From assembly GCA_951406725.2 (NCBI GenBank), contig OX597832.1, forward strand, positions 43,400,001-43,464,000: a stretch of DNA of 64,000 nucleotides. Reading direction: 5' to 3'. Position numbers and translations under genes: made by a program. Shown here in pieces: positions 26,320 through 28,229 of the stretch (position 1 is its first letter; every line of letters starts with the position of its first letter). This stretch comes from Octopus vulgaris (taxonomy: Eukaryota). The notes under the pieces were generated by a model. That model ran no database searches. It was not told the DNA's origin and worked only from the letters and a program-made list of their open reading frames with translations.

Positions 26320-28229
26320 CAGTACCAGGAAGCAATGCAGTGTGTAACTCTACCAATGCCTGCTGTCCAAAATGGAACGGAAAATGTTGCTGCGGATTTA
26401 ACTACCAACTCCTCATGAAGTCTTTACGGAAAGAAACTAGAGATGGAACTCAGAAAGACTGTGCAGAAATCAAACAAAGCAACAAAACTAAGAAAGAAAC
26501 TGCAAAGTCCACTTCTAGAAGTTACAGAGATTATGAAATCAAAGACATTTCGGATATATTCTTGCAATATAACTACAGCTACCAAAATATTCCTCCTAAC
26601 CTGGCTCATATCGGAACGGAACTTCTCGACGCTGAATCCGTTCGCTATTTCCGTGATTATGACGACGAGGTTGTATTCCTTGGTAAAGGTTCTTTCGGTG
26701 AGGTTTACCTGGCAGAGATGGCCGTAAGTAAACAGGTTGTTGCTGTGAAACTGTTTCTCGATTCCGATTATTTGGACATTATATCTGAAGTGATAATCAC
26801 GCAATATCTGTCGAGCACGGGGGTCATTCCCAAAATCTTAGGCTTACTTCCGACAGGTCTTATGGCAAGTAACCTTTCGCTGGTCCAAGAATATATCAGC
26901 GGTATGACCCTGGAGGATCATCTAAACGAAGAGAACGAAACTGCGTTGACAGCCGTGAACTGGTTAAACATATCTCTGCAGCTGACGGCAGGTTTACAAA
27001 AGATACACCAACAATACGTCCTTCTTAATGACATCCACGAAGGAAATGTCCTTATAGAACAGCCCTACCTGCGAGTCGTCTATATCGACATGGGACATGC
27101 AACCTTCCGGTCAGGTTATAAATATAAAAACTATAACGGTTCTCTATACACTTACGAACACTTGGCTCCAGAGCTGCGCAAAAGCCAACCAGGGACCCCT
27201 GCATCAGATGTTTACAGTTTGGGTTCTTTGCTTAGTCGTATCAGTAATATTAGTCACATTGAAGAACTTCAGAAACTAGCTAACCAGTGTTTACTAACGG
27301 AACCTAGTTCTCGACCAACTTTGAGTGATTTAACAGTATCGATAAATGAGCTATTCATAAAAGAAAAACAGAAGTTAGAACAACAGAAAATAAAATTTCC
27401 GGGGCAGACCCCAAACACAAAGGAAGGAAACTACCCACCTTTAATTCAGTACAATGTACCGATACTTGGCCCGAACGCCATCAGCTCTATTGAAAATGAT
27501 TCTTATAAAGACAGTGCCATTATTAACATGTATGAATTCTTGGGAGACACTAAACTGCAAATTGGCAAATTCGTAAAATGTAATTGTAAAGTGATGATCC
27601 GTTCCTATGAAAATGGATCGTTCGTGAGAATCCTCGAAGAATCCCGAATTCTGTTGCATTTAAAAGATACGGGTGCCGTATTTCCATTTCACGGTCTGTT
27701 ACCCACAGGCACCCTTTTGGACGAATTCGAAATAGTTCAGTCATATTTCGGGAAAATGGTGTCCGTTGCCAATATTTTGCATTATTATCCACTCCGTCTT
27801 TCCGATGCCGAAATTTTGGTTTTCTTCATTCACGTCGCCATACACCTCCTCGAAATACACCGCAAAGAAGTCCTACTTAATTACATAAACGAATATAACA
27901 TTATGATTGATCCGGAAAATACGAAAAACCCTGTCTGGTTCAGTGACCTCTCCCGAGCCACTTACAATGAAGCTTACGTATTTCTTGTTCATGAAATTGA
28001 CTTGAGCGACTTCATATTCCTAGCGCCGGAAGTCAGGGCTGGTTCCCCGACCTCTCCAGCCAGTGATATCTATAGTTTATGCTACGTTTACCAACAAGTC
28101 ATCAGCCGTCTTAAAGGAAAGACTCGTTTAAAAATTCTGCAGCACTGTCTTGCGGTGGTTCCGGAAGCTCGACCGTCTCTACCGGAAATGATCATGTACT
28201 TGCGAACACTGGCCCATTCCCTTCGATAA
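26320..28229 (+). CDS. Exon 2 (terminal) of a tandem kinase-pseudokinase protein with an N-terminal Cys-rich mini-domain
   Basis: Open frame of 635 codons after a polypyrimidine tract and TTTCAG|CAG acceptor, with an in-frame TAA upstream at 26289. Domain 1: GKGSFG, VAVK, alphaC Glu, LNDIHEGN, DMG, LAPE, SDVYSLG, RP. Domain 2: VMIR, LNYINEYN, DLS, LAPE, SDIYSLC, RP. AATAAA at 28249 and 28267. Confidence 0.93.

Follow-up and report, generated by a model that had tools for sequence, protein, structure and literature searches.

Many extracellular phosphorylation events are, to our knowledge, without an assigned enzyme. In animals, the kinases known to act in the secretory pathway make up only a few families, i.e., Fam20, four-jointed, VLK and POMK, and the pseudokinase Fam20A is described to activate the kinase Fam20C allosterically in this pathway (PMC7948968). 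Here we report on a gene of Octopus vulgaris that encodes a kinase and a related pseudokinase on a single chain. It lies in a stretch of 64,000 nucleotides (contig OX597832.1 of assembly GCA_951406725.2, positions 43,400,001 to 43,464,000), which is the stretch of DNA that was analysed and is referred to as the window. From its sequence we are inclined to regard the product, a two-exon protein of 667 residues, as a kinase that is glycosylated and acts in the secretory pathway or outside the cell, and whose dead domain would serve as an in-chain allosteric or substrate-docking partner. The features are as follows (positions in the window, unless a contig is given):

20523..20616, + strand: coding part of exon 1, with ATG, predicted signal peptide (approximately residues 1-26) and GT donor at 20617
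20617..26319, + strand: intron of 5.7 kb with GT...AG ends and many simple repeats
26320..26666, + strand: start of exon 2, with a coleoid-conserved Cys-rich motif, a variable disordered stretch and a conserved pre-kinase segment
26667..27356, + strand: domain 1, protein kinase, from Pfam Pkinase (E 2.4e-25), residue columns and a structure match to FES kinase
27357..27521, + strand: inter-domain linker, partly disordered, ca. 50% identical to P0003, P0004 and P0005
27522..28229, + strand: domain 2, pseudokinase, 28% identical to domain 1, then the stop codon
G000:C19:43382826-43382912: L006, first exon of model P0199, present in this genome

Both kinase-like domains are contained in a single open frame (26292-28229, + strand), which is identical, letter for letter, to the O. 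vulgaris record P0199 across the last 635 residues. The O. bimaculoides orthologue P0002 (97% identical) possesses some 30 extra N-terminal residues, and these are encoded at 20523-20616, where exon 1 specifies an N-terminus matching both P0002 and P0197; joined to the acceptor at 26320, this exon gives an open spliced frame of 667 aa. The sequence-only reading had placed the duplication within one exon, and the two domains indeed share one, but this is exon 2 (from 26320) and not the whole gene, with exon 1 at 20523-20616. The donor reads CAG/GTGAG and the acceptor is pyrimidine-rich and ends in TTTCAG. The splice joining exon 1 to the kinase exon was observed in contigs from three of four public runs (X1, X2 and X7; studies P1, P2 and P3), which depart from the genome at the start of exon 2, their loose letters mapping to 20582-20613 in exon 1. 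The contig of the fourth run begins within exon 2, short of the junction, and covers both domains without gaps. The RNA nature of these four runs is a guess and transcription is deduced from the spliced contigs: the joined form skips 5.7 kb at GT-AG ends and thus represents a spliced transcript. All A>G differences among the contig substitutions are synonymous and, therefore, no RNA recoding was seen. There is no sign of a transposon or viral origin; it is a single two-exon gene, and searches of the octopus' own genome, the counts of which are lower bounds, found the tandem only here.

Further downstream in the window, on the same strand, a long exon (61690-62847, +) matches Sulfotransfer_2 (E 2.9e-44); it encodes a carbohydrate sulfotransferase, probably a Golgi enzyme without relation to the kinase. 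Short frames at 32402-32914, 33857-34216 and 61100-61444 resemble, judging from their motifs, decayed retroelement or transposase fragments.

Domain 1 scores 89.9 bits against the Pkinase profile (Pfam; curated cut-off 31.7, E 2.4e-25). The residues attributed to it by the sequence-only reading (Gly-loop, VAVK, catalytic Asp, Asn, the Asp of DxG and a loop that is not HRD) were all found in place, i.e., a GKGSFG loop, VAVK with its Lys codon AAA at 26748, LLNDIHEGN with its Asp codon GAC at 27030, DMG and APE. The core set is complete (K175, E188, D269, N274, D288, APE, D328 and R363), and H271 is also present; the domain is of the non-RD type and its catalytic loop carries His at D+2. Across the family alignment of 15 rows, four of which are close coleoid orthologues, K175, P202, N268, D269, H271, N274, D288 and R363 are invariant (15/15). 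Of ten core kinase residues given in PMC1821047, domain 1 has nine by our mapping, the exception being Leu at the H164 position, where, according to that paper, a change is possible without loss of function; the invariant Pro of the family corresponds to the position given there as P104, which is Val in PKA (PMC1821047). The invariant catalytic residues speak against the idea that domain 1 is dead. In haspin, the histidine with a suggested ATP contact presumably occupies the D+2 position. Haspin is an active Ser/Thr kinase and a contact between ATP and the histidine near its catalytic Asp is proposed in PMC3513839; given this precedent, His at D+2 on its own implies neither a dead enzyme nor a non-protein substrate. 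Judged by its residues, domain 1 is probably active as a kinase. It may act on Ser/Thr or on Tyr, and a glycan acceptor is possible.

The region of helix alphaG is deleted from domain 1, leaving its GHI subdomain incomplete. The distance between the Asp of alphaF and the Arg of alphaH is 35 residues (35-37 in 22 rows) versus 60-71 in the five canonical domains in which this measurement was possible, i.e., about 25 residues are missing between alphaF and alphaH, the stretch holding helix alphaG. The same deletion is present in single-domain relatives, and in the domain-2 part of the profile a gap of 27 residues occurs relative to EGFR. In structure comparisons, domain 1 matches FES kinase (VIA Z 25.5, rmsd 2.3, 237 aligned), closely followed by MLCK-type, Csk, plant RIPK and BRAF kinases; PDB sequence searches rank TKL and tyrosine kinases, plus some Ser/Thr kinases, and the ESM Atlas returned generic kinase clusters only. 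The fold of the family is best read as TKL/TK-like without helix alphaG.

This combination of features could also fit a secreted chain in which neither domain is a working protein kinase, with domain 1 phosphorylating a glycan, a lipid or a small molecule, or with the chain as a whole serving as a binding or structural matrix protein. The His at D+2, the lack of RD, the invariant Pro at the P104 position and the loss of alphaG are all compatible with such a role, as are the weak profile matches among family members to ABC1 (10/15), APH (9/15), Kdo (8/15) and choline kinase (3/15), and POMK is a precedent for a secreted kinase of near-canonical sequence that acts on a sugar (PMC7948968). However, Pkinase and PK_Tyr_Ser-Thr are the best Pfam families in all 15 members, protein kinases (CTR1, RAF, CERK1, FES and Csk) head the matches by sequence and by structure, and two protein kinase features, the APE motif and the Arg of alphaH, are retained. 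We consider this alternative unlikely and retain domain 1 as a putative protein kinase.

The product of exon 1 contains a hydrophobic stretch free of charges and, after it, a small-x-small site; from hydropathy and by eye, we take this to be a signal peptide that can be cleaved. In five orthologues, hydropathy stays at or below 1.6 in all later 19-residue windows; consequently, with no further stretch resembling a membrane span, both kinase domains would be carried into the lumen behind the signal. When a signal-like N-terminus is defined by an 11-residue Kyte-Doolittle mean of at least 1.8, in proteins with at least 35 residues before the kinase, it occurs in 12 of 17 NDxH proteins (those with His at D+2, as in the octopus) versus 2 of 57 single-domain NDxK relatives, a set from which Lingula P0122, which has a hydrophobic N-terminus, was left out (Fisher p 2e-8). 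Since the family rows are related, such p values err on the optimistic side; even so, the nearest relatives differ strongly. The five of these 17 proteins that have a long N-terminus without a signal-like segment are perhaps incompletely modelled, or else genuinely cytosolic. N-glycosylation sequons are likewise enriched: 188 were observed in 25 NDxH proteins versus 116.5 expected from composition, and 141 versus 95.5 in the 20 that are not from coleoids, whereas 75 NDxK relatives show no excess (308 versus 316.7). The window protein itself has 10 sequons versus 4.7 in shuffles (p 0.012), and the one at N216, just before beta5 of domain 1, is found in 19 of 24 family rows versus 1 of 75 relatives. 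The Cys-rich motif near the N-terminus is conserved in coleoids. Taken together, the sequence data point to a protein that very likely enters the secretory pathway.

A cytosolic kinase-pseudokinase resembling JAK or the plant tandem kinases would be the main product if the N-terminus were no signal peptide, or if an alternative first exon dominated. Indeed, the O. vulgaris model P0199 starts with a different, non-hydrophobic exon (L006), located 17 kb upstream of the window, the Argonauta model P0003 begins at a downstream Met, and the hydrophobic segment of the octopus protein is only moderate (1.85), with a Lys after it and not before it. However, the three junction-crossing contigs all connect to the signal exon, none of them to the P0199-type exon, the signal exon is also the one found in the two O. 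bimaculoides records, and other mollusc members have stronger signal-like N-termini (P0004, P0005 and the records of Lottia, Patella, Lymnaea, Biomphalaria, Physella and Haliotis). Moreover, the excess of sequons is specific to the NDxH subfamily. A cytosolic main product therefore seems quite improbable to us, and predicted entry into the secretory pathway remains the preferred reading.

The tandem is not a novelty of octopuses, as it occurs across gastropods. The best 150 matches of a HMMER search against 1.84 billion representatives comprise 25 proteins with the loop N-D-x-H-x-x-N, most of which have the two-domain layout, 82 with N-D-x-K-x-x-N and 27 with HRDxK. Naming covered 20 of the 25 NDxH proteins; four of these are unnamed and 16 were named directly or via a cluster member, i.e., one cephalopod (Argonauta) and 15 gastropod records (genera Lottia, Patella, Haliotis, Gigantopelta, Batillaria, Nucella, Elysia, Lymnaea, Physella and Biomphalaria). 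Full-length or near-full-length orthologues are present in Octopus bimaculoides, Argonauta and cuttlefish-type records. A profile word search with alignment A2 added one Biomphalaria protein, and a homologue search with P0040 returned only P0040 itself. Three bivalve matches (Solemya, Potamilus and Pecten), a small part of the NDxK set, were examined and are single-domain NDxK kinases, which suggests that the tandem is absent from bivalves. The order of the domains, kinase followed by pseudokinase, is kept across gastropods and coleoids. In P0038 of Lottia gigantea the pair is itself duplicated (signal, D1, D2, D1, D2). Some Haliotis proteins (P0105 and P0123) have only one of the two domain types and, hence, the two domains are perhaps not always paired.

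A careful tree, built from 33 domains, unites the ten copies of domain 2 in a single clade (95/86) that divides into a gastropod and a coleoid subgroup, but does not resolve a corresponding clade of domain-1 copies; a tree of 87 domains, obtained by a quick search only, gave SH-aLRT values of 96 for the domain-2 clade and 87 for the domain-1 clade. A separate duplication confined to coleoids is not rejected by the AU test (p 0.144). In view of the shared domain order, the shared His and the shared signal, a single duplication before the split of gastropods and cephalopods would be the simpler reading, but it is not proven.

Several relatives outside the tandem family deserve mention. The octopus genome contains two near-identical single-domain NDIK kinases (L002 and L003, G000:C9), of which L002 is whole and L003 ends before APE, and, 16 Mb away on the same contig as the tandem, a decayed partial copy of domain 1 (L005, G000:C19:59332599-59332985; 47% identical across query residues 97-218, with two TGA stops). 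The brachiopod Lingula anatina has its own two signal-bearing ND kinases (P0039 and P0122): one consists of three NDFK domains in tandem, the other of a kinase domain and a C-terminal hydrophobic segment, with 11 sequons versus 2.8 expected, a layout that suggests a cell-surface ecto-kinase. As the Lingula proteins fall into a clade of their own (99/99), secretion may go back to one early origin or to two origins. Five further single-domain ND kinases (P0055, P0059, P0062, P0082 and P0107) have a hydrophobic extreme C-terminus and are possibly tail-anchored.

The two halves of the octopus protein align motif by motif, as had been described, with 60 identities over 211 positions in BLASTP (28%, E 1e-25). 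Domain 2 reaches the Pkinase profile with E 2.9e-4 only, which is under the curated cut-off (Pfam). It lacks the Gly loop and has VMIR (with Arg for the beta3 Lys), LLNYINEYN (with the codon TAC, Tyr, at 27882 in the position of the catalytic Asp), DLS and APE, so that the losses ascribed to it beforehand are real. In all 15 family rows, domain 2 has a residue other than Asp at the catalytic position (Asn 9, Tyr 4, Cys 1, Arg 1). Other positions are better retained, i.e., beta3 Lys/Arg in 14, the alphaC Glu in 13, Asn in 12 and the DxG Asp in 11 of the 15 rows. The retention of the basic beta3 residue, Glu, Asn and the DxG Asp, together with the loss of the Gly loop and the catalytic base, is compatible with a nucleotide-binding scaffold.

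The sequence-only reading had proposed that an intragenic duplication produced a regulatory or decoy pseudokinase, with a substrate class that may be unusual, and had named neutral decay of domain 2 as an outcome that would speak against it. The comparison with P0002, P0003 (Argonauta), P0004 and P0005 supports a duplication that gave a conserved pseudokinase, whose regulatory or decoy role is putative (P0006 of Acanthosepion, with a model truncated in domain 2, was excluded here): domain 2 of these four orthologues is 98, 86, 71 and 71% identical to that of the window protein and domain 1 is 99, 93, 88 and 85% identical, versus 96, 51, 52 and 50% for the linker, and the pre-kinase segment is 89-100% identical in the four orthologues. 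Among coleoids, the N-lobe of domain 2 is more conserved (79-89%) than its C-lobe (67-85%). The contigs of the public runs contain 22 substitutions; with one change in the 3' UTR dropped, the 21 coding ones are all synonymous, including all nine in domain 2, where the silent share expected is 22% of all single changes or 34% of transitions (P 1e-6 to 7e-5, the latter if all changes are transitions). Some of these variants, from one contig at a depth of 2.4, are possibly errors, for which, however, no preference for third positions would be expected. Purifying selection maintains domain 2 as a pseudokinase, and the nine synonymous variants and the conservation among orthologues (71-98%) rule out neutral decay.

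The AlphaFold2 model built on the alignment (mean pLDDT 72.7) has two folded domains, the second with kinase-like secondary structure, and a disordered N-terminus; pLDDT is below 50 at residues 1-106 and 388-401, the latter in the linker. With a pTM of 0.49, no orientation between the domains can be trusted. Domain 1 could be a secreted kinase and domain 2 have a separate job, binding matrix, a nucleotide or a partner with no effect on domain 1. Besides the model without a defined inter-domain orientation, the long branches of domain 2 in limpets and abalone and the existence of single-domain members of each type fit this possibility, and, since single-domain relatives lack alphaG as well, the deletion alone does not require a partner. 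Against it stand the order of kinase and pseudokinase kept from gastropods to coleoids, the repetition of the whole pair in Lottia, and the higher conservation of the domain-2 N-lobe than of its C-lobe, as expected of a contact surface. We regard two independent jobs as very improbable; by analogy with Fam20C and Fam20A, a functional coupling of domain 1 to domain 2 appears rather likely.

With coupling as the preferred reading, the chain would enter the ER by means of its signal peptide, and there disulfides would form in the Cys-rich motif of the N-terminus and the conserved sequons would be glycosylated. Domain 1 would use lumenal ATP and, as it has no RD arginine, we propose that it needs no phosphorylation of its activation loop. 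As helix alphaG, a usual substrate-docking element, is missing, we propose that domain 1 relies on domain 2 to be stable, to become active or to capture its substrate, in the way that Fam20C relies on Fam20A. The targets would be secreted or matrix proteins. A wider scenario, which we hold to be doubtful, is that molluscs independently invented extracellular phosphorylation: a cytosolic ND kinase would have acquired a signal peptide and then been duplicated before the gastropod/cephalopod split, giving a one-chain analogue of Fam20C-Fam20A that phosphorylates the secreted matrix of an organ which bivalves lack, e.g., the radula or the buccal/salivary apparatus. The fact that named members come only from radula-bearing groups suggests, speculatively, a target in the radular or buccal matrix; phosphoserine has been reported in the chiton radula matrix in a paper whose main text names no such kinase (PMC6351634).

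A further secretory kinase family that is derived from cytosolic kinases and has its own pseudokinase in the chain would represent an independent origin of kinase function in this pathway. For phosphorylated matrix proteins of molluscs it would supply a candidate enzyme that can be put to the test, and it would be a compact model of the control by a pseudokinase of a kinase that has neither RD regulation nor helix alphaG. Current database names hide the family, as its members are labelled shkC, PRKCQ, PrkC-like or melanoma receptor kinase.

Compared with known systems, the closest homologues are the single-domain ND kinases of lophotrochozoans (N-D-[ILV]-K-x-x-N), which are 33-43% identical and automatically named shkC-like or DDB_G-like. 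They share the non-RD ND loop and the alphaG deletion with the octopus family, but have Lys instead of His at D+2, one domain, signal-like N-termini in only 2 of 57 cases and no excess of sequons; in the careful tree the mollusc domains group with these ND kinases, apart from the canonical outgroup rows. Our literature search found no paper on the single-domain ND kinases and, in open-access main texts, no description of the tandem family, members of which could sit under automatic names in shell, mucus, egg, salivary or radula proteomes. Each ingredient is known, but a single chain of this kinase lineage that unites them all seems to be undescribed.

JAK (JH2-JH1) and GCN2 also have two kinase folds in tandem, one of them dead, and TYK2 and JAK structures are among the top matches of the whole model in Foldseek, albeit with an rmsd of ca. 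20 and 13-15% identity. Asn at the catalytic position, found in nine of the 15 domain-2 rows, is the state of JAK JH2. However, the order of the domains is reversed relative to the octopus protein, which has no FERM, SH2 or HisRS domain (a Pfam scan of the family members matched kinase profiles only, with no FERM-SH2) and is predicted to be lumenal, not cytosolic. Plant proteins of the WTK1/Yr15 type reportedly carry a kinase followed by a pseudokinase on one chain. Such plant tandem kinases are intracellular immune proteins built from RLK-type kinases; they share the domain order with the mollusc family, which differs by its signal-like N-termini and ND-type domains, and the common architecture is convergent. 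The analogies with JAK, GCN2 and plant decoys drawn in the sequence-only reading concern cytosolic proteins and, given the predicted secretory entry, point to the wrong compartment.

The VLK/Fam69/DIA1 family is presumably marked by the PIP49-type profile. No match to PIP49 (Fam69) was found by Pfam in any of the 15 members, and POMK/SGK196 is not among the best 50-60 matches listed in the sequence and structure searches; VLK and POMK were compared by description. VLK/PKDCC, POMK/SGK196 and Fam69/DIA1 resemble the octopus protein in having a kinase of recognisably near-canonical sequence behind an N-terminal secretion signal, but they are described as single kinases, with no mention of a tandem pseudokinase (PMC7948968), whereas the octopus family is a tandem. 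No member (0/15) matches the Fam20C, Fam20, four-jointed or Fam198 profiles of Pfam at E <=0.1. Nevertheless, the proposed arrangement in the octopus is that of Fam20C and Fam20A, i.e., an active kinase and a related pseudokinase in the secretory pathway, although the Fam20 proteins are atypical kinases on separate chains and the octopus protein unites both partners in one chain with the Pkinase fold.
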